Assembly (NCBI GenBank): GCA_017540175.1
Contig: JAFYBN010000125.1
Coordinates: forward strand, 6,108-70,107
Origin: Clostridia bacterium
GTDB lineage: Bacteria; Bacillota; Clostridia; Oscillospirales; CAG-272
Direction: 5' to 3'
Length of the DNA: 64,000 nucleotides
A program made the position numbers and the translations under genes. Below are positions 51,612 through 60,537 of the stretch, piece after piece; within the stretch, counting starts at the first letter, position 1, and every line of letters starts with the position of its first letter. The notes below the pieces were generated by a model. The model was not told the DNA's origin, searched no databases, and saw nothing but the letters and a program-made list of their open reading frames with translations.

Positions 51612-52811
51612 TCAATCGTTCAAAACGGGTTTCAGCGCGCGGGAGAGGATGCCGTTCATCTCGGCGATGGCGACGCCGTAGTTCACCATGGGAACGCCCG
51701 CCTCGGCACATCGCGCCATGCGGCTTTTCATTTCCCGCTCGTTCAGCATGCACCCGCCGCAATGAACGACGACGCTGTATTCCGAGAGATCGTCCGGGAA
51801 CTCGCCGCCGGAGGTGAAGGAGAAGGACGGCTCGGCGTGGGAATAATTCCGGATCCACATGGGGAGCTTCACCGTGCCGATGTCTCCGCACTGCCGCCTG
51901 TGGGAGCATCCCTCGGCGATCAGCACGCGGTCCCCGTCCCCGAGGGAGCGCAGAGCCTCCGCGCCGCGCACGAGCGCGCCCAGCTCGCCCTTATACCGCG
52001 CGAACAGGATGGAGAACGAGGTGAGGGGCACGTCCTCTGGCACGAGCTTTGAGACCCGCGCGAACGCCTGCGAATCCGTGATGACGACGGCGGGCTTTTC
52101 ACAGAGCGACGCCAGAGCGCCGGGGAGCTCCGTGTCCCGGACGCAGACGACCGCCGCGCCCGCCTCGAGCAGGTCGCGGATGACCTGCTGCTGGGGCAAA
52201 ATCAACCGTCCCTTCGGCGCGGCGTCGTCGATGGGGATGACGAGCACGGCGCAGTCTCCCGGCTTCACGAGATCGGCGGCGACGTGCTTTTCGACCCGTC
52301 CCGCGGAGCCGAGCGCGGCGATTTTCGCCCGCAGCGCGTCGATCCCCTCTCCCGTGAGCGCGGAGACGGCGATCCCGTCTTCCACGGCTACGGATTCGAC
52401 CACGAGATCGCTCTTGTTGTATGCGATCACATACGGGATGTTTCTCTCCCGGAAGACGGCGAGCAGGGCGCGGTCATCATCGCCGAGCCCGACGGACGCG
52501 TCGACCGTCAGCACGGCGACGTCAACGCCGCTCATGGCCTGTTTCGCCCGCTCGACGCGCAGGGAGCCGAGCTCGCCCTCGTCGTCGATGCCGGGGGTGT
52601 CGATCAGCACAACGGGACCGAGCGGCAAAAGCTCCATCGCCTTCTTGACGGGGTCGGTCGTCGTGCCCTTCACGGGGGAGACGACGGCGATCTTCTGGTT
52701 TGCGACGGCGTTCATCAGGCTCGATTTCCCGGCGTTGCGCATGCCGAAAAAGCCGATGTGAACACGCTCGCCGGACGGGGCCTCGTTCAGGGACGCGAGA
52801 TTCTTTTCCAT
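51612..52811 (-). CDS. hydF: [FeFe]-hydrogenase-type maturation GTPase HydF
   Basis: 399 aa; GTPase motifs GMRNAGKSS, DTPG, NKSD; C-terminal cluster motif CSH...HCGGC (the CxH / HCxxC signature of HydF). Confidence 0.85.
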   Translation of the reverse strand: MEKNLASLNEAPSGERVHIGFFGMRNAGKSSLMNAVANQKIAVVSPVKGTTTDPVKKAMELLPLGPVVLIDTPGIDDEGELGSLRVERAKQAMSGVDVAVLTVDASVGLGDDDRALLAVFRERNIPYVIAYNKSDLVVESVAVEDGIAVSALTGEGIDALRAKIAALGSAGRVEKHVAADLVKPGDCAVLVIPIDDAAPKGRLILPQQQVIRDLLEAGAAVVCVRDTELPGALASLCEKPAVVITDSQAFARVSKLVPEDVPLTSFSILFARYKGELGALVRGAEALRSLGDGDRVLIAEGCSHRRQCGDIGTVKLPMWIRNYSHAEPSFSFTSGGEFPDDLSEYSVVVHCGGCMLNEREMKSRMARCAEAGVPMVNYGVAIAEMNGILSRALKPVLND

Positions 52812-52834
52812 ATGCCGATCCTTCCCTTTTCCGC

Positions 52835-53940
52835 TCAGAACGCCGAAGCGGCGGACGACGGGTCGAAGATGCGGTTCGCCTGTTCGTCGGTGAGCTCGAT
52901 GCCGAAGACCTCGCGGTAGTACGCCCTGGTCTCCGCCGTGATGTCGATGTCGGCGAAGAGTTCGGGATAGACGGTCTTCGCCATCCAGAGCAGCGTCACG
53001 GGCGTGTCGACGCCGCAGGTGTAGCTGCGGTACATGCCGAGGGGCATTTTATAGACCTTGCCGTTCTTCACGGCGTCGACCTCGCTCCAGTCGTAGTTGC
53101 CCACGGTGTTATTGATGAGATCGGCAGGTTTTGCGGGGTTGAAGTTCGTGATGAGGATCTTCTGCGGGTTCCACGCGTAGATCTGTTCCATCGTCACGGC
53201 GGTGGAATTGTCCGTTTCCATTTCCGAGCCGACGTTGTACGCGCCGACCGCGTCCGCCCACCACTGACCGAAGAAATGCCTGCCGGAGGTGGTGATGGTC
53301 GTTTCGTTGTACTGGAAGAGGAAGAACACTTTCTCAGCAGTGTCCAGCGCGGCAACTCTGTCCTGAACGCGCTGATACACGTCCGCGCTGTAGGTCTTGA
53401 CCTTTTCGGCGCGGTCCTTGTTCGCGGGGAAGATCTCGGAGAGCAGAAGGATCCAGTTGTTCAGGGTTTCGATGGCGTCGTAATCCCATTTGCCCGCGGC
53501 GACCGAGATGCCGGGGATGCCCGCGTTTTTGAGCTGTTCGCCGATCTGGGGCGTGCTGCCGTAGAAGACGACGTCGGGCTCGAGCTTCATGAGCTCTTCG
53601 ATGTTGACGGTCGTGCCGTCGATGAAGTCCGTTTTCGCGTCAAGGATCTCCGGATAGAGCTCGGAGAGCAGGCTGTTTTTCGCGGCGGTCATGCTCGGGG
53701 GAGCCATTCCGACGATCTTTTCGGCGGAATCGAAGAACACGGCGAGCACGCTCACGAGGGGGTAGATGTCACAGACGACGATGCGGTTGATCTCTGCGGG
53801 CACCTCGACGACGTTGCCGCGTGGTCGGTGACGGTCACTTTGCCGTCGGTCTTTTCGGTTTTACCCGCGCACCCGGCAAACGCGCCCGAGAGCATGAGGA
53901 CGGCGAGGAGTGCGGAAATGAGACGGAGGGAGGTTTTCAT
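52835..53940 (-). pseudogene. Chelate (iron-siderophore/cobalamin/heme type) ABC substrate-binding lipoprotein, frameshifted
   Basis: The signal peptide and lipobox ORF (53940..53752, MKTSLRLISALLAVLMLSGAFAGC) and the binding-domain ORF (53803..52835, ...VPAEINRIVV...) are in different frames. Restoring one G in GACCACGCGGC near 53817-53822 gives continuous ...VTVTDHAGNVVEVPAEINRIVV... Confidence 0.8.
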
Positions 53941-55112
53941 AAATCAAATTCCTTTCTGAACTTGTTGAAATCACGGATGAGGTCGGGAATATCCCGGCGG
54001 AACATACGCCCGGAAAAGCCCTCGTGCGGCAGCGGGACAAAGCGCGCCGTTTTCGGGACGATCGGGCGGTAGAGCGGATCGGCGATCACGGTTTCCGCGT
54101 TCTTGAGCAGGGGGGCGAGATCGTCCTCGTCAACCGCCATGGGGCAGCCGGACGCGGTGAGAAGCGGGTCGGTGTCGGTCGCGGAAACCGCGCGGGTGGG
54201 CACGCCGCTCTCAAGCGTCAGAGCGCGGGCGAGGGAGCATGCCGTCACGCCCTCGCCGATGACGACGCGGCGGGCGTCCGATTCTCCGATCCCGATCACG
54301 CGGCATTCTCCGTCATCCGCCGACTTGCGGAGCAGGGAAAAGAGTTCTTCGGCATACCGGTCGCCAACGGGCGTGCCGACGACGTACGGGGTGCCGAACC
54401 GCTCCTTCAGAACCTTTGCCGCGCCCATGCCCGCGCCGGACACGACGAGATTGACCGCCGCGGAGGCGCTTTTTTTGAGCTCGTCGAGGGACGAGCCCAT
54501 CGCCCAGCGGGAGAGGACGGAAAAGCCGTTTGCCTCAAGCAGGTCCTTCATGGCGGCGTCGGCGCCGAGGACGGAAAAATCGAGCGGGGTCAGTCCGAGA
54601 AGATTGACGGGGATGCCCTTTTGAACTGTTCCTTGATTGTCCTGCACGGTCACAAACCGTTCAGCGACCGCGGCGAGCGCCGCTGACGCGCCCCAGACAT
54701 AGGAGCGCATTCCGTTCGTGTCGAAGCCGAACGAGGGGATCCCCGTACGGTCTTCGATCTGCCGCGCGACCGCGGCGAAATCCACGCCGGTCATCATGGG
54801 AATCGGCGTTCCGGCGATCGCGACGAACGCGGGCTTCAGTTCCCGCGCGGCCTTCACGACGTCGCCGATCAGCTTTTCGTCGTCGCCGAGCATCGCCTCG
54901 ACCTCCGTCAGGGCGGAAATAAAGACAAGGCTGTCGTGATCGTACCAGCGCGGCTCGTCGTGGGTATTGTAGGTGGAATTGCATCCGGAGGCGTCGTGCA
55001 TGACGGTCATGCCGCCGAGCTCGAAGAGCGCCGACGCGACGCCGGAGGTGTCCCCCGCGTAGGTGGAGATGATCCTTGCAGTCTGCTTTACTGACATAAG
55101 CCGCACCCCCAT
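53937..55112 (-). CDS. Nitrogenase component 1-type oxidoreductase, beta-like subunit (NifK/BchB/BchZ-like)
   Basis: 391 aa; HDASGCNSTY cluster loop, AFVAIAGTPIP, overall Oxidored_nitro layout; start ATG 55112 or ATG 55097, both overlapping the upstream gene; TGA overlaps the next ATG. Confidence 0.8.
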   Translation of the reverse strand: MGVRLMSVKQTARIISTYAGDTSGVASALFELGGMTVMHDASGCNSTYNTHDEPRWYDHDSLVFISALTEVEAMLGDDEKLIGDVVKAARELKPAFVAIAGTPIPMMTGVDFAAVARQIEDRTGIPSFGFDTNGMRSYVWGASAALAAVAERFVTVQDNQGTVQKGIPVNLLGLTPLDFSVLGADAAMKDLLEANGFSVLSRWAMGSSLDELKKSASAAVNLVVSGAGMGAAKVLKERFGTPYVVGTPVGDRYAEELFSLLRKSADDGECRVIGIGESDARRVVIGEGVTACSLARALTLESGVPTRAVSATDTDPLLTASGCPMAVDEDDLAPLLKNAETVIADPLYRPIVPKTARFVPLPHEGFSGRMFRRDIPDLIRDFNKFRKEFDL

Positions 55113-56404
55113 CCCTTGATCCCGATGAGTCCCCGGGTGTCCTTTTCTTCAAGGAAGGCTTCGGTCATGAGCTCTGCCGTACGGATCACCGCGTCGAAGC
55201 CCCAAAGCCCGCCGTTTTCGACGACGTTCACAAAGTGCGGGGACGAGGTGAAGTAAGCGGCCTTCTGCCCGACGGCGAGCGTACGCGGATCGCCGTCCCG
55301 GGGCATGACGCGCATCGAGGGGTGCACCGTCGGCCAGATCATGAGCTGCGGCGCTTCGTGTTTCAGAGCTTCGAAATCCTCTTTTTCCTCCCCCGTGAAG
55401 GAGTCCGCGTAGATCCGCTTCACCCGGAAGCCATGCTTCAAAAGGAGCCGGGCAAGGCTCAGGGGACGGGAGAACGCCGTGTAATCGATCACGACGGGCA
55501 CGTCGCCGATCACCCGCTTCGCCTCCCGCATCGCCGCCTCACATTCCGCTCTATTCTGTGACCAGTCGGGGACGGGAATGCCGAGCGCGGCACAGAGCTT
55601 TTCGTACTGCGCTTCGATCTCGTCCGCGTCGAAGCTGAACGGGAGGTGGAGATGCTTCATGCCGTGCTTTTCGGCGAGCATTTTCCCGGCGGGAATCGCG
55701 GCGGGCTGGGTTGTCAGCGCGAACGCGGCGCGGGCGAGCTCAAGGTATTCGGAAAAGGTTTTCGCCTGCTGGATTTCGGAGTGCCGGAAGCCGTTTTCAC
55801 GGAGAAGAGCCGTGAAATCCCCTTCTTCGACGGCGAAATCCCCGCCGACGGAGAGGACGGTCTTCGGGTCGTGTTCCTTCGGATCGAGCAGGCTGTAAAG
55901 CTGACGCCGCATGAGCTGATCGGGCGTCAGACCGGATTTGCGCATGATGGGGTTCATATAGCAGTCCGTGAACCGCACGGAGGGAAAGCGTCTTCCGAGC
56001 TCCCCGTAGGCGAGCGTGAGATCGGTTCCCATGAAATGGTGGACGCAGCTCGTATAGACGAGCACGGCGGGCGGCAGGGACGGCAGTTTTTCGAGGATGT
56101 CCGTAACACCCTCGACGAGCAGATTTTCGAGATCGCCGTCAAGCACGTTGTTTTCGCGGACCGCCACGGTCGAAAAGCGCTCCGACGCGCCCATTTCCGC
56201 CGCGGTGAGCACCACGCCGCGCAGGCATCCCTGCGCGCAGACGAAGATCTCGTGCGCTTCGGGCACAAGCATGCCCGTGTGCGCGATGTTCCACGTTCCG
56301 CGTGCGGGAGCCGCGTATTCGAGCCCCGCGTCAAACGGCGCGGGGAAGGAAGCCTCCGATATGGGAAGGGGCTTTCCCTCTTTTTCGCCGAGCTTTCGGA
56401 TCAT
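55088..56404 (-). CDS. Nitrogenase component 1-type oxidoreductase, alpha-like subunit (NifD/BchN/BchY-like)
   Basis: 438 aa; N-terminal cysteines in FVCAQGCLRG and VYTSCVHHF; Oxidored_nitro-like three-domain layout; ATGA overlap with the nifH-like gene. Confidence 0.8.
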   Translation of the reverse strand: MIRKLGEKEGKPLPISEASFPAPFDAGLEYAAPARGTWNIAHTGMLVPEAHEIFVCAQGCLRGVVLTAAEMGASERFSTVAVRENNVLDGDLENLLVEGVTDILEKLPSLPPAVLVYTSCVHHFMGTDLTLAYGELGRRFPSVRFTDCYMNPIMRKSGLTPDQLMRRQLYSLLDPKEHDPKTVLSVGGDFAVEEGDFTALLRENGFRHSEIQQAKTFSEYLELARAAFALTTQPAAIPAGKMLAEKHGMKHLHLPFSFDADEIEAQYEKLCAALGIPVPDWSQNRAECEAAMREAKRVIGDVPVVIDYTAFSRPLSLARLLLKHGFRVKRIYADSFTGEEKEDFEALKHEAPQLMIWPTVHPSMRVMPRDGDPRTLAVGQKAAYFTSSPHFVNVVENGGLWGFDAVIRTAELMTEAFLEEKDTRGLIGIKGWGCGLCQ

Positions 56405-57162
56405 ATTCCCTCCTGTGCAGCTGCGATCACGGCGTCCGCGAGCGCGCGGTACTCAGCCGCGGTCTCGCTGTCCGGAAAAGCTTCGATCACGGTCTTCATG
56501 AGCTCTTCGGCGTCCGTCACCGTATCGCTGCGGCTGATCGAGCCGACGACGCGGGAGCCGATCTTCCCGGCGAGCGCGCCGACCTTTTCGTCCTCGTTTT
56601 TCACGTTCCGGCGGTTCAAAATCAGCCCGCCGAAGGTGGCGTAGCCGCGGTTTTTGAAACCGTCGACCGCCGCGGCGATGTTCTCGGCGGCGTGAAGCGA
56701 CATGTTCTCCCCGGAGGTCACGACGAAGACCTGTTCCGCGTAGCCGGGTCGCATGGGCATGGTGAAGCCGCCGCACACGACGTCGCCAAGCACGTCGTAA
56801 AAGACGACGTCCGGCTGATAGACCTCGTACGCTCCTTTTTCGCGGAGCTTTTCGAGCGCGGCAATGATCCCTCTTCCGGCACATCCCGTACCCGGCGCGG
56901 GACCGCCCGCCTCGACGCAGATCACGTCCGCGTACCCCCAGCAGGTCATGTCCGAGAGCGAGAAATCGTTTCCCCTCTCCCGCACGAGATCGAGCACGGA
57001 CGGCAGTTCCCGTCCGCCGCGCAGAAGAAGGGTGGAATCCGCCTTCGGGTCGCAGCCGATCTGCATAACGCTGAGGCCTCTTTCGCCCAGCGCCGCCGCG
57101 ACGTTTGCCGCCGTGGTCGATTTCCCGATGCCGCCCTTTCCGTAGATCGCGATTCGTTTCAT
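56401..57162 (-). CDS. NifH/BchL/CfbC-family ATP-dependent reductase (iron protein homologue)
   Basis: 253 aa; P-loop YGKGGIGKST, switch I GCDPKADST, cluster cysteines in GTGCAGRG and DVVCGGF. Confidence 0.9.
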   Translation of the reverse strand: MKRIAIYGKGGIGKSTTAANVAAALGERGLSVMQIGCDPKADSTLLLRGGRELPSVLDLVRERGNDFSLSDMTCWGYADVICVEAGGPAPGTGCAGRGIIAALEKLREKGAYEVYQPDVVFYDVLGDVVCGGFTMPMRPGYAEQVFVVTSGENMSLHAAENIAAAVDGFKNRGYATFGGLILNRRNVKNEDEKVGALAGKIGSRVVGSISRSDTVTDAEELMKTVIEAFPDSETAAEYRALADAVIAAAQEGI

Positions 57163-57980
57163 ATCTGTTCTCCTTTGTCCGCGTCATCCGCGAGCCGGAC
57201 CGGGAGGATCCCGCGGACCCTCGTCCCGTCCGCTTCAAACTCGCCGACGACCGTTTCGACGCCGAACGCCTCCCGGATGTGGTCCCGGGTGACGATGATG
57301 TCGGTTTCACCGAACAGGGCGCGCCCGTCTTTGCCGAGCAGAAGCGAACGGTCGGCGTGCTGCAGCGCGTGTTCGGGATAATGCGTATTGAAAATGACCG
57401 CCATGCCGCCCTTTGCGAGGGAGCGCAGCGTTTCGAGCACAATGAGCCGGTTTTTGAAATCGAGGTTCGATTCCGGCTCGTCCAAAATGAGAAGCTCCGG
57501 TTTCGCCGCGAGGGCGCGCGCGATGAGGACCATCTGCGCCTCTCCCCCGCTGAGCTCGTCGAACCGGCGTCCGAGCAGGGCGGAAATGCCGAGCTCTGCC
57601 GCGAGAGAACGCACGAAGCCGCGCTCCTCTTCTCCGGGGGAGGAGAAGACGCCGATCCGGCCCGTGCACCCGAGCAGGATCATGTCCTCGACGGCGAGGG
57701 AAACCGGATTGCCCCTTGCCTGCGGGACATAGGAGATCCGTCTCCAGAGCTGGCGGGACGGAATGCTTCCAAGCTCCGTGCCGTCGATGAGGGTGCGACC
57801 CGCGCTCCACGGCAGAAAGCCCGCCATACAGCGCAGCAGGGTCGTCTTCCCCGCCCCGTTGGGACCGAGAACGGCGACGAGCTGACCGGAGCTCACGGAA
57901 AAACTGAGCTCGGAAAGCACGGGCTTTCCTTTTTTGTACGCGAAGGACGCGTTTTCAACCGTCAGATTCACAGCCTCCAC
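57159..57980 (-). CDS. ABC transporter ATP-binding protein, FepC/FecE/BtuD type
   Basis: Walker A GPNGAGKTT, signature LSGGEAQ, Walker B LILDEPES; ATGA overlap with the nifH-like gene. Confidence 0.9.
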   Translation of the reverse strand: MEAVNLTVENASFAYKKGKPVLSELSFSVSSGQLVAVLGPNGAGKTTLLRCMAGFLPWSAGRTLIDGTELGSIPSRQLWRRISYVPQARGNPVSLAVEDMILLGCTGRIGVFSSPGEEERGFVRSLAAELGISALLGRRFDELSGGEAQMVLIARALAAKPELLILDEPESNLDFKNRLIVLETLRSLAKGGMAVIFNTHYPEHALQHADRSLLLGKDGRALFGETDIIVTRDHIREAFGVETVVGEFEADGTRVRGILPVRLADDADKGEQI

Positions 57981-58987
57981 CCCTCCGTTCTGCGCATGAG
58001 ATAAATGAAGAACGGCGCGCCGATGACGGCGGTCAGGATCGAGACCGGCAGATCGGACGCGGTCATGGACCGCGCGGCGGTATCAACAACCGTGAGGAAG
58101 CCCGCCCCAATGAAGACCGACGCCGGGAGCAGGGAGAGCTGGTTCGATCCCCATTTCATCCGGCAGATGTGGGGGACGAGCAGTCCGACCCACCCGACCT
58201 GTCCGCACATGGAGACGACGGACGCAGTCATGACGGCGGCGCATCCGATCACCGTGCCGCGCAGAAGCTTCAGATTGACCCCCGCGGCGCGCGCCTCGTC
58301 CTCGCTCAGCGGGAGCAGGTTCATCCGCCAGCGCAGAAGCAGGAGCACGGTGAGTCCGATCAGGATGGGCGGCGCGCCGAGCAGCAGCTCGCCGTACCCC
58401 GCGGAGCCGAGATTGCCCATCAGCCAATAGGTGATGGCGGGGAGCTCGGATTCGGTATCCGCCGTCAGCTTCGCCCACGAAACGAGGGCGTTGAACAGGG
58501 AGCCGATCATGATGCCCGCGAGCACCGTGCCGCTCAGTCCCCTTCCCGCTCTTCCGGAGCCCGTAAGGGTCGTGAGCAGGATCGCCAAAATGCCGAAGCC
58601 GAGCGCGAAGAGCTGGATGCCGACGAGCTTCATGCCGCAGAGCATTCCGAGCGCCGCGCCGAACGACGCGCCGGACGCCACGCCGAGAGTGTCGGGCGTT
58701 GCGAGGGGGTTTGAAAACAGGCTTTGGAACGAGCATCCTGCGGCGGAAAGCCCCGCTCCGGCGAGCATGGCGAGCAGGATGCGCGGGAGCCGCACATGCC
58801 ACAGTGTCGATTCCACAAAGCCGGACGGCAGCGATCCCCCCGTCAGGTGCCCGACGACGGAATGCCACAGATCGGCGGGCGTGACGGAATACCGCCCGAT
58901 CATGAGCGCGCACAGCCCCGCGATCACGGGGATGAACGGCAGGATGATCGCCGCGGGGCGGACGCGTCTTTTTTTCTTTTCGTTCAT
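57968..58987 (-). CDS. FecCD-family chelate ABC transporter permease
   Basis: 339 aa, about 9-10 TM helices; typical FecCD/BtuC pattern (RLPRILLAMLAGAGLSAAG, ATPDTLGVASGASFGA). Confidence 0.9.
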   Translation of the reverse strand: MNEKKKRRVRPAAIILPFIPVIAGLCALMIGRYSVTPADLWHSVVGHLTGGSLPSGFVESTLWHVRLPRILLAMLAGAGLSAAGCSFQSLFSNPLATPDTLGVASGASFGAALGMLCGMKLVGIQLFALGFGILAILLTTLTGSGRAGRGLSGTVLAGIMIGSLFNALVSWAKLTADTESELPAITYWLMGNLGSAGYGELLLGAPPILIGLTVLLLLRWRMNLLPLSEDEARAAGVNLKLLRGTVIGCAAVMTASVVSMCGQVGWVGLLVPHICRMKWGSNQLSLLPASVFIGAGFLTVVDTAARSMTASDLPVSILTAVIGAPFFIYLMRRTEGWRL

Positions 58988-59241
58988 TCTTTTGAGATAA
59001 CGCCGGAATAGGCGGTTTTAACGCTCACGCCGTCGAGGCGTCCGATTTTGCCGGAGAGCGCTGCGATTTTGTCCTGCGGGGCGTCCAGCGCGATGGAGAT
59101 GATGCTCACGCCGCGCCTGCGGTACGGGATGCCCATTCTTCCGATGATATATTCGCCGGTTTCATGCAGAAGCGAATTCAGCGCTTCGACCGAGGCGGCG
59201 TTCTCGACGATGATGCTCATGACGGCGACTCTGGTTTCCAT
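58984..59241 (-). CDS. TM1266-like small ACT/NikR-C-like protein (annotated elsewhere as putative iron-only hydrogenase system regulator)
   Basis: 85 aa; VAVMSIIVENAASVEALNSLLHE...IIGRMGIPY...IALDAPQDKIAALSGKIGRLDGVSVK follows the pattern I recall for the TM1266 family; first gene of the operon, ATGA overlap with the permease. Confidence 0.65.
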   Translation of the reverse strand: METRVAVMSIIVENAASVEALNSLLHETGEYIIGRMGIPYRRRGVSIISIALDAPQDKIAALSGKIGRLDGVSVKTAYSGVISKE

Positions 59242-59395
59242 GTTGACCTCCGAACAAAAAACTGCCGTGCTCTCACTGAAAGCACGGCAGCGCGAAAACT
59301 CCGGTATGACCGGGATATCACCTGTGTCCGCCGCCTTTCAGTCAGAACGTATCTTTCTGTCAGGCCCCGCGGCGATGTGCCGCGGCGACGGTGAT
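59242..59395 (-). promoter_or_regulatory. Structured 5' leader with terminator/antiterminator alternatives (candidate riboswitch or attenuator)
   Basis: About 150 nt between the -10 and the ATG. Contains a GC hairpin CCGCGGC-ACATC-GCCGCGG (59367-59385), a tandem CUGACNGAAAG repeat, and a helix GUCGCCG (59389-59383) / CGGCGGAC (59333-59326). An antiterminator strand (59342-59328) is complementary to the terminator 5' arm (59290-59275); the terminator is 59255-59290. Confidence 0.6.
59255..59290 (-). terminator. Leader terminator upstream of the nif-like operon
   Basis: Minus strand reads CTGCCGTGCT-TTCAGTGAG-AGCACGGCAG followed by TTTTTTG, ending 13 nt before the ATG and just upstream of the GGAGG RBS. 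Confidence 0.8.
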
Positions 59396-59424
59396 AGTAT
59401 AACCCGCTTTTTCAAAAAAGTCAA
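59396..59424 (-). promoter_or_regulatory. SigmaA-type promoter of the nif-like operon
   Basis: Minus strand reads TTGACT (59424-59419), 17-nt spacer, TATACT (59401-59396). Confidence 0.6.
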
Positions 59425-59478
59425 TGGATGAATTGTGAATTTCGATCCGCGAAGAAGTTGTCGCGGGGAGGCGCGCCG

Positions 59479-60537
59479 TCAGTCGATTTTGATCTCGGCG
59501 TGACACTCGGCGGAGGCATAAATGCCGTCGAGCATTTTCTGAACCACGAGCGCGTCTTCGATCGGGGAGATCGGAGTCTTGCCCTCGTCCAGGCAGGAGA
59601 AGAAGTGACGGATCTCCTCCTCGTAGAAGTCGTTGCCCTTGACTTCGATCTTTTCGTTCGTCAGCTTGCCGTTTTCGTCCACGCCGTACACCGTGAGGGG
59701 ATCGAAGGAGCAGCCGGCCTTCGTGCCGTAGAGCTTCGAATAGAATTCCTCCGCGCCGTTGATGGTCCACGACGCTTCGGCGATCATGGCCTTGCCGTCC
59801 TCGAAGCGGAAGAAGACCGCGGCGGAGTCCTCCACGTTGAAGATCGGGGGTTCCGGACGGTCTGCAAGACCCTCGCCCCAGGTAAAGGACGCCTCGGAAT
59901 TGTTTCTTCCGATGCGGTAGGACGTTTCCGCGGAGACGGAAACCGGCTTCGGTTTGCCCATCAGATACCACGTGCGGTCAATGGCGTGCACGCCGATGTC
60001 AAGGACGGGACCGCCGCCCGCGATCTCCTTGTTGGTGAACCAGCCGCCGGGCACGCCGCGCCGTCTGACGTACGCGGTCTTCGCGAGGTAGATATCCCCG
60101 AAAACGCCCGCGTCGCGCAGTTCGATGAATTTCTGCTGTTCCGCCCCGTAGCGGGTGCAGACCGCGAGCATGAACGTGACGCCCGCCTTCTTCACGGCGT
60201 CCGCCATCGCCTTGCCCTGCTCGAGATTCGCGGCAAGGGGCTTTTCGCAGAGCACGTGCTTGCCCGCGTTCGCCGCCGCGATGGTAACGGGCGCGTGCGC
60301 CGCGGTCCACGTGCAGCAGTCGATGACCTCGACCTCGGGTTCATTCGCGAGCAGCTCCTCCACGGAGGCGTAATAATGGGGAATGCCGTACTTTTCGGCG
60401 GCGTTTTTCGCCCGCTCGATCACAATGTCCGCGACCGCGACGAGCTCAACCTTGTCCTTCATTCTCTCGTAGGACGGGAAATGCGCGTATCCCGCGATGC
60501 TCCCGCAGCCCACGACGGCAACCTTCCATTTTTTCAT
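59479..60537 (-). CDS. Gfo/Idh/MocA family oxidoreductase
   Basis: 352 aa; N-terminal Rossmann KVAVVGCGSIAGYAH, EKPLA motif (LCEKPLAAN). Confidence 0.85.
   Translation of the reverse strand: MKKWKVAVVGCGSIAGYAHFPSYERMKDKVELVAVADIVIERAKNAAEKYGIPHYYASVEELLANEPEVEVIDCCTWTAAHAPVTIAAANAGKHVLCEKPLAANLEQGKAMADAVKKAGVTFMLAVCTRYGAEQQKFIELRDAGVFGDIYLAKTAYVRRRGVPGGWFTNKEIAGGGPVLDIGVHAIDRTWYLMGKPKPVSVSAETSYRIGRNNSEASFTWGEGLADRPEPPIFNVEDSAAVFFRFEDGKAMIAEASWTINGAEEFYSKLYGTKAGCSFDPLTVYGVDENGKLTNEKIEVKGNDFYEEEIRHFFSCLDEGKTPISPIEDALVVQKMLDGIYASAECHAEIKID

Follow-up and report, generated by a model that had tools for sequence, protein, structure and literature searches.

The locus considered here raises the question of what kind of RNA precedes an operon of Clostridia bacterium (lineage CAG-272), and to which signal this RNA responds. 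The RNA is the leader encoded on the minus strand at positions 59,242 to 59,424 of the window, by which we mean the whole stretch of 64,000 nucleotides analysed. It lies in a 237-nt spacer (minus strand) between the end of a GFO/IDH/MocA oxidoreductase gene at 59479 and the start of an 85-codon TM1266-like gene at 59241. An earlier note on this DNA had described a structured leader of ~150 nt with mutually exclusive helices and had offered two options for it, namely a new or divergent RNA that senses a ligand, or an attenuator that depends on a protein. All the elements which it listed are present on the minus strand at the positions it assigned to them, and its two options are the readings that remain after our analysis. 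The leader itself very probably belongs to an undescribed and widespread class of transcription attenuators, the sensor of which is a small irregular hairpin, termed P1 in this study.

The earlier note could not recognise the class of the leader, and our Rfam 15 scan agrees, with no meaningful match on the window or the leader. On the whole 64-kb window nothing was found at gathering scores, and the interval 59150–59520, scanned at E<10, returned only a spurious opposite-strand snoRNA match (14.5 bits where 70 are needed). Nothing relevant was found in 20 related TM1266 loci either. In our literature search on TM1266, hydrogenase maturation and orphan riboswitches, this RNA was undescribed. 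When the leader was compared with 60 relatives by BLAST, five congeneric species proved to have a homologous leader, with the same promoter box, a terminator and a TM1266-like gene in every case. Two covariance models (CMs) were used for wider searches, the first made from this hairpin and the second rebuilt from the first-round matches. They gave 14 true matches in about 260 genomes of the family, 20 in 400 genomes of the order and 17 in 400 genomes of other Clostridia orders. An exact pattern derived from the consensus was also run over a collection of 185,579 species, and the 119 listed loci from this search are the basis of the gene-layout counts given below. The pattern matched more than 119 species, at least 110 of them truly, and nearly all of these are Oscillospirales metagenome-assembled genomes (MAGs) from gut or rumen. 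Four listed matches (Paenibacillus, Thiodiazotropha, Bacteroidales and one Bacillota MAG) are without promoter, terminator and gene context and were rejected as chance. Altogether, more than 115 species from several orders of Clostridia carry the hairpin. The motif is present in one copy per genome in the genomes searched, and neither the CM search nor a loose regular expression found a second copy in the genome of the window.

The consensus of P1 is CCUGACA-N-AAAGA...UCUG-M-N'-UGAAAGG. Throughout the family the hairpin consists of helix P1a (CCU/AGG with a variable closing pair), a 2x2 GA/AA internal loop, helix P1b (CAN/N'UG), a second 2x2 loop of AA/G(A or C), helix P1c (AGA/UCU) and a variable terminal loop. 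In the window these elements read GCCU/AGGC, GA/AA, CAG/CUG, AA/GA and AGA/UCU, closed by the loop UACGU. The alignment of the five congeners contains the invariant block RCCUGACAGAAAG-N5-CUGACUGAAAGGYGACG. Both copies of what had been described as a tandem CUGACNGAAAG repeat are present, but they are really the two strands of this one conserved hairpin.

Covarying, conserved structure in orthologous leaders, which had been proposed as a check on the leader, was found. Among 44 distinct sequences found by the CMs, 94.1% of the cells of the proposed helices are standard pairs, as against 26–44% when the 3' partners are slid by 1–3 columns, and the covariation score of P1 was reached by none of 500 shuffles. 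The P1b pair 12:28 occurs as U-G (11), C-G (10), G-C (10) and U-A (4), with seven non-standard cases, and the P1c pair 17:23 as A-U (31), C-G (3), G-C (2) and U-A (2). One leader (L215) carries a compensatory change from C-G to U-A in P1a together with one whole extra base pair inserted in P1b. The leader is thus a covarying structured RNA, as would be expected of a riboswitch aptamer too. C6, U7, G8, A9 and A68–G71 are invariant in all 44 sequences. Most positions of the helices show no variation, which is neutral as to structure and suggests base-specific recognition.

The part of the leader which had been taken for the aptamer is a different one. The GC hairpin upstream of P1 is absent from the leaders L009–L013 and from all other leaders of our alignment A1. 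The 5' closing helix drawn between GUCGCCG and CGGCGGAC is possible on paper, but it overlaps the GC hairpin and has no counterpart in the five congeneric leaders. Both belong to an insertion specific to this genome and, because relatives lack them, they were rejected as parts of the aptamer. Within 59367–59395 of the window, complementarities AUCACC...GGUGAU and CCGC...GCGG flank the GC hairpin and are likewise found only in this genome, where they could form an extension of P1a.

P1 is joined to a standard expression platform. Only one promoter-like site is present in the interval 58900–59700 (shuffle mean 0.3); congeners have a TTGAC(T/A)...TATA(C/A)T box in the equivalent relative position, and in relatives the conserved element begins ~9–22 nt past the -10 box. 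The leader is predicted to fold with -70.3 kcal/mol compared to -51.3 ± 4.1 kcal/mol for dinucleotide-shuffled sequences, a value better than that of all 200 shuffles (z = -4.7). The terminator which the earlier note had placed ahead of the ribosome-binding site (RBS) is present with its tract of six uridines, but its stem has 14 pairs and not 10. Of 131 non-redundant leaders, 119 were found to contain a terminator. The leader is therefore a terminator/antiterminator attenuator in its design, because an intrinsic terminator stands between promoter and gene and an alternative helix is mutually exclusive with the sensor helix.

The alternative helix is the antiterminator, which had earlier been drawn by hand. 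In the minimum free energy (MFE) fold, calculated with ViennaRNA for a window transcript ending just before the 3' arm of the terminator, ACUGAAAGGCGGCGG pairs with CUGCCGUGCUUUCAGU, and this is the same helix. The antiterminator strand had been thought to be shared with the 5' closing helix; the strand that is actually shared is AAAGG, the 3' strand of P1 itself. The pairing of this strand follows the terminator of the respective species. In 76 leaders with distinct tails, the mean energy of pairing between AAAGG plus the following 12 nt and the 5' arm and loop of the terminator is -11.7 kcal/mol if the arm comes from the same species and -9.7 kcal/mol if it comes from another. The own-arm value was reached in none of 2000 permutations, a result that is supportive and is not to be read as a probability, since relatedness inflates such a comparison of own and foreign arms. 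When 103 leaders were ended before the 3' arm of the terminator, AAAGG paired with the terminator arm in 66 MFE folds and with CCUGA in nine. In the full-length RNAs of the same number of leaders, the terminator was formed in 84 and P1a in 77. These counts point to antiterminator formation and read-through as the default co-transcriptional path. Both the tracking of the own arm and the maintenance of the exclusive design across orders argue for a regulated decision.

On this basis we infer the following direction of the switch. P1, a 33-nt irregular hairpin with invariant purine-rich internal loops, would be transcribed first, followed by the 8–12 nt which, together with its AAAGG strand, can pair with the 5' arm of the downstream terminator. 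By default, the long antiterminator helix would win over the weak base of P1 (3–4 bp), and RNA polymerase would read into the operon. If an effector clamps P1, AAAGG would be sequestered, the antiterminator could not nucleate, the terminator would form and the operon would be turned off. P1 would hence act as an anti-antiterminator. The OFF logic suggested in the earlier note is supported by these exclusive helices in our models, with the sensor helix relocated. As the conserved switch precedes TM1266 and the genes for [FeFe]-hydrogenase maturation or transport in more than 100 species of Clostridia, it is probably the means by which these genes are turned off.

To see what is regulated in this way, gene context was assigned by tblastn with the proteins of the window, HydE (TIGR03956, 582 bits), HydG (TIGR03955, 928 bits) and one S component of the energy-coupling factor (ECF) transporters, which belongs to the PF12822 family. 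Among the 119 listed loci, the layout TM1266-HydE-HydG-HydF is present at 43, and at a further 21 the same layout is cut by the ends of the locus or contig. TM1266-HydG(-HydF) was found at nine loci and TM1266-HydF at two, while four have HydE-HydG(-HydF) or HydE with no TM1266 between. TM1266 is followed by an ECF S component at 17 loci, and an ECF S component stands alone behind the motif at one. These counts indicate that the normal home of the leader is the operon of [FeFe]-hydrogenase maturases. In two MAGs labelled as Lachnospiraceae (L120 and L131), motif and TM1266 are directly followed by HydF, and hydE and hydG are not adjacent.

The ECF type of operon is of a different nature. Two-gene operons consisting of motif, TM1266 and ECF S component include L083, L087, L096, L105, L111, L119, L127 and L262, the last being an additional locus with the order motif-terminator-TM1266-ECF S. 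In one species (listed as L093) the motif precedes the ECF S gene and TM1266 is located 9 kb away. None of the eight ECF-type genomes tested has HydG or HydF above the curated cut-offs, so the module of TM1266 and leader is not confined to hydrogenase maturation. The ECF S homologues at L256–L261 and L263–L266 are without the motif.

The operon in the window represents a third type. Its gene order is TM1266-like, FecCD permease, ABC ATPase, NifH-like, two NifD/K-like, periplasmic binding protein and HydF, and this order of eight genes is conserved in four congeners (L276–L279) with 61–83% amino-acid identity. In this genus the importer and the NifH-like and NifD/K-like genes occupy, between TM1266 and hydF, the position which is held by hydE-hydG in relatives. 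The genome of the window also contains a HydA-like gene (C119:9610–10350) and a HydE-like gene (C52:16301–17329), the latter without the motif; HydG was not detected in this assembly, which is 93.5% complete, so that its absence is not proven. The suggestion that the leader reports on whatever this particular operon imports or makes does not fit the wider picture, because the same leader usually heads hydE-hydG-hydF and elsewhere an ECF S component.

The one constant partner of the motif is TM1266. At 104 of the 119 listed loci (~88%), the motif is followed by TM1266 at a distance of 65–270 nt. The three types of operon (hyd, ECF-S and FecCD/nif-like) are unrelated in other respects, and in each of them TM1266 comes first behind the motif. 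Among the 21 order-level matches that score 26 bits or more, 19 are followed by TM1266. One of the two exceptions is cut off by the end of its contig, and the other (genome G322, 30.8 bits), whose contig is not the one that carries TM1266, is probably false. No other gene travels with the motif. On a tree of TM1266, the ECF type needs 2–4 changes and the FecCD type two, although the tree is based on 85 columns only and many of its forks are unresolved. Several changes of operon type on this tree suggest that leader and TM1266 were kept together as a pair while the cargo was swapped. All ten genomes tested in which hydE, hydG or the ECF gene directly follows the motif have TM1266 elsewhere, and in all five genomes scanned with the model, filters off, such stand-alone TM1266 genes have no motif upstream. 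A gene that is located elsewhere and is free of the motif, where it is not in cis, is how a trans-acting factor would look.

In one genome (G614:C24, locus L200) a motif-free stand-alone TM1266-like gene has as its neighbours an open reading frame (ORF) for a Rex-like repressor and the C-terminal portion of a HydA-like gene, which suggests that TM1266 is set in another regulatory context there.

The first protein of the operon is a clear member of the TM1266 family (TIGR03959/PF21699, structure 2NZC), with 107.9 bits for PF21699 (cut-off 27) and 113.3 bits for TIGR03959 (cut-off 60.8), and the RNA described here is a candidate target of this family. Its AlphaFold2 (AF2) model has a predicted local distance difference test score (pLDDT) of 94.9 and reveals a beta-alpha-beta-beta-alpha-beta domain. 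Foldseek matches it to 2NZC (TM1266; E = 4e-10, TM-score 0.86–0.92), to the C-terminal domain of NikR (TM-score ~0.8) and also to ACT domains. Residues Arg4, Arg35 and Lys75 and a GRMGxPY loop are among those that are invariant. A nickel site of the NikR type is ruled out, because the protein lacks both Cys and a cluster of His residues and its invariant residues include no metal ligand; His26, the only common His of the family, lies outside both the invariant columns and those conserved at 90% or more. The family carries the label of a putative regulator of the iron-only hydrogenase system, which is an annotation from genomic context with no target in the literature searched. No nucleic-acid-binding or DNA-binding domain that might explain this label was found in the protein. 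The part of the label that refers to the hydrogenase system appears too narrow, since the family occurs with an ECF transporter in genomes that lack HydG and HydF.

Regarding the effector, we infer that it is most likely the 85-amino-acid TM1266-like protein itself, with its ACT/NikR-C-like fold and its gene in the first position of the operon, a proposal that we hold with belief and doubt in about equal parts. The protein would then work in the manner of PyrR, binding the RNA as an oligomer and bringing about attenuation under the control of a small ligand. Several points weigh against this proposal. TM1266 is present in 244 of 399 sampled Clostridia genomes (61%), and its co-occurrence with the motif is weak evidence for this reason. 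The exact motif is missing from most TM1266-bearing genomes, with a related leader at about 12 of 20 sampled TM1266 genes of other families. Dyad symmetry of the hairpin would suit a homo-oligomer, and it is only partial in the family, the second loop having G-C instead of G-A in 18 of 42 sequences, which weakens the case for TM1266; the related leaders of type B described below are not dyadic. The structural neighbours of the protein are domains that sense metals or amino acids and are not RNA binders. A structure search for RNA-binding relatives returned only ligand-sensing ACT, NikR and PII-like domains and one weak match to a ribosomal protein, so that RNA binding is putative. The OFF direction is derived from energy models. 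Lastly, a near-invariant small hairpin ahead of both biosynthetic genes and transporters is also a classic riboswitch signature.

This signature leads to the second explanation, which is possible and which we would advance only tentatively: that P1 is itself an aptamer and represents a new class of riboswitch, being stabilised by a directly bound small molecule or ion so that transcription terminates, and that TM1266 is merely one of the regulated genes, for example a carrier or buffer of the ligand. The unpaired purines of the internal loops (G8, A9 and A68–A70) are invariant in all 44 sequences, the helices flanking these loops covary, and a standard expression platform is present. The regulated genes comprise enzymes (hydE/G/F) and two kinds of importer, the ECF S component and the FecCD ABC system, and the ECF-importer genomes that carry the motif lack HydG and HydF; such complementarity between making and importing is typical of riboswitch regulons. 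The absence of the motif from TM1266 genes located elsewhere, in the five genomes checked, fits this explanation as well. However, the structure is very small and simple for an aptamer, a single hairpin with no junction or pseudoknot detected, and it occurs in single copy per genome. One gene family, labelled as a regulator and having no DNA-binding domain, stands behind the motif in ~88% of the listed loci across unrelated operons, and no one candidate ligand links hydEGF, the ECF S component and a nitrogenase-like enzyme.

It is rather unlikely that some other trans-acting factor (a protein, a small RNA or a tRNA) binds the hairpin, or that the hairpin only sets constitutive termination or RNA stability and conveys no signal. 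Nothing in the sequence identifies the binder, and in some genomes the motif stands directly before hydE or hydG, both of which would be in keeping with such an explanation. A purely constitutive role is at odds with an antiterminator that tracks its own terminator arm and with the exclusive design maintained across orders. Also against these explanations, the motif has no other gene travelling with it, and the leader contains neither an AUG nor a conserved leader peptide. The idea that the leader consists of chance GC-rich helices with no function can practically be dismissed: although the GC hairpin and the closing helix specific to the window are unconserved, the window contains the core pattern once and 100 shuffles do not contain it at all, the fold is far below that of shuffled sequences (z = -4.7), and more than 110 species have the motif in the same placement relative to promoter, terminator and gene.

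Three known types of RNA element were also considered and rejected. Attenuation by a leader peptide does not apply, since neither an AUG nor a conserved small ORF is present in the leader. The other two had been suggested by the CUGA/GAAA and GA/AA elements of the RNA. A hammerhead ribozyme is excluded because the RNA reads CUGACAG/CUGACUG, so that G8 and A9 of the CUGANGA core are missing, and there is no Rfam hammerhead match. A kink-turn (K-turn) was rejected by inspection, the 3-nt bulge with G.A/A.G pairs being absent.

The design proposed for TM1266 is closest to that of PyrR in the pyr operon of Bacillus (RF00515). There, too, the regulator is the first gene of the controlled operon, and a protein-bound hairpin serves as the anti-antiterminator, its 3' strand being common to an antiterminator in competition with an intrinsic terminator, so that binding leads to termination; the protein is gated by a ligand, as is proposed here. 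Unlike in the PyrR system, there is no match to RF00515 or any other Rfam family, the protein is an 85-amino-acid ACT/NikR-C-like domain and not a phosphoribosyltransferase (PRTase) fold, there is one site and not three, and the binding of RNA is putative. TRAP (trp leader) and HutP (hut) are likewise small oligomeric proteins, activated by amino acids, which bind repeated short elements in leader RNA and thereby choose between terminator and antiterminator, and hutP, like TM1266 here, heads its operon. However, TRAP and HutP read 3-nt repeats in single-stranded RNA, whereas the element described here is a base-paired hairpin with GA/AA internal loops, and HutP antiterminates (ON) whereas the present design predicts OFF. 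Among riboswitches, preQ1-I, guanidine-II/III, nhaA-I Li+ and HMP-PP thiS similarly set a near-invariant element of 35–45 nt against a terminator and antiterminator, in association with transporter and pathway genes. The present RNA matches none of these in Rfam 15, and its near-obligate linkage to one small protein labelled as a regulator is atypical of such riboswitches.

Control of the HydE/HydG/HydF machinery, which builds the active site of [FeFe]-hydrogenase, is essentially unknown, and TM1266 has long been called a putative regulator with no target or mechanism. The conserved switch gives both questions a testable handle, consisting of one RNA of 45 nt and one protein of 85 amino acids. 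Should TM1266 prove to bind the hairpin, an ACT/NikR-C-like domain would be added to the few attenuation proteins known to bind RNA under the control of a ligand; otherwise the hairpin would represent a new riboswitch class. Because transporter operons of genomes that lack HydG and HydF are also preceded by the switch, as is, in this genus, the operon of nitrogenase-like and importer genes that ends in hydF, the signal sensed may lead to a compound or pathway not yet tied to hydrogen metabolism in gut Clostridia. A more speculative idea, which we regard as improbable, is that leader and TM1266, as a portable module, together sense an H-cluster assembly intermediate or precursor, either made by HydE/HydG or imported, and that gut bacteria salvage an external metal-chelate or cofactor precursor and process it reductively to load HydF. 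If this is true, it would be a new supply route for the hydrogenase cofactor and a case of cross-feeding.

The features of the locus are collected in Table 1.

Table 1. Features of the leader and of the operon which it precedes, in window coordinates
Feature	Positions	Strand	Remarks
Sigma-70-type promoter TTGACT-17-TATACT	59424-59396	-	10 of 12 consensus matches; predicted transcription start at ~59389
GC hairpin CCGCGGC-ACAUC-GCCGCGG	59385-59367	-	5' insertion peculiar to this genome; overlaps the 5' strand (59389-59383) of the closing helix called 'P1' in the earlier note
Conserved sensor hairpin P1	59365-59333	-	58-62 bits with covariance models R1 and R2
Tandem-repeat copies CUGACAGAAAG and CUGACUGAAAG	59363-59353 and 59345-59335	-	The two strands of P1
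Antiterminator 5' strand ACUGAAAGGCGGCGG	59342-59328	-	Overlaps the 3' strand of P1
Variable spacer hairpin CCGG-UCAUA-CCGG	59313-59300	-	Sequence unconserved; congeners have unrelated hairpins, shorter leaders have none
Intrinsic terminator	59291-59255	-	14-bp stem (59291-59261), then UUUUUUG; 5' arm 59290-59275 (CUGCCGUGCUUUCAGU) is the antiterminator partner
RBS GGAGG	59251-59247	-	
ATG of TM1266-like gene	59241-59239	-	
TM1266-like gene, 85 amino acids	58984-59241	-	Heads the operon; may act on the hairpin in trans
Remaining operon genes (FecCD permease to HydF)	51612-58987	-	Profile matches

Beyond the families in which P1 itself is found, leaders of a related kind precede TM1266. Upstream of this gene in 20 other Clostridia families, about 12 related leaders were found. 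Five of these (L234, L238, L246, L248 and L250), termed type B, read GUYCUGA-N3-4-CAY-GA-GGG...CCC-AA-RUG-N-AAGGC and are followed by a terminator; the outer module which they have in common with P1 consists of a CU/GG helix, the GA/AA loop and a CAY/RUG helix. Two further leaders (L237 and L245), termed type C, are longer and end in CUGAGCGGAAAGGC. Types B and C and the other variants are without an Rfam match. It is possible that the related leaders before TM1266 in other families and the leader described here form one larger RNA superfamily. Leaders L240, L249 and L236 are further variants, and an outer CUGA...AAGG module followed by a terminator is common to the related leaders.

Within the operon of the window, the gene for the periplasmic binding protein is present as two ORFs on the minus strand, one of 62 amino acids (53752–53940) and one of 322 amino acids with a GTG start (52835–53803), which overlap in different frames. 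This state of the gene is consistent with a frameshift.

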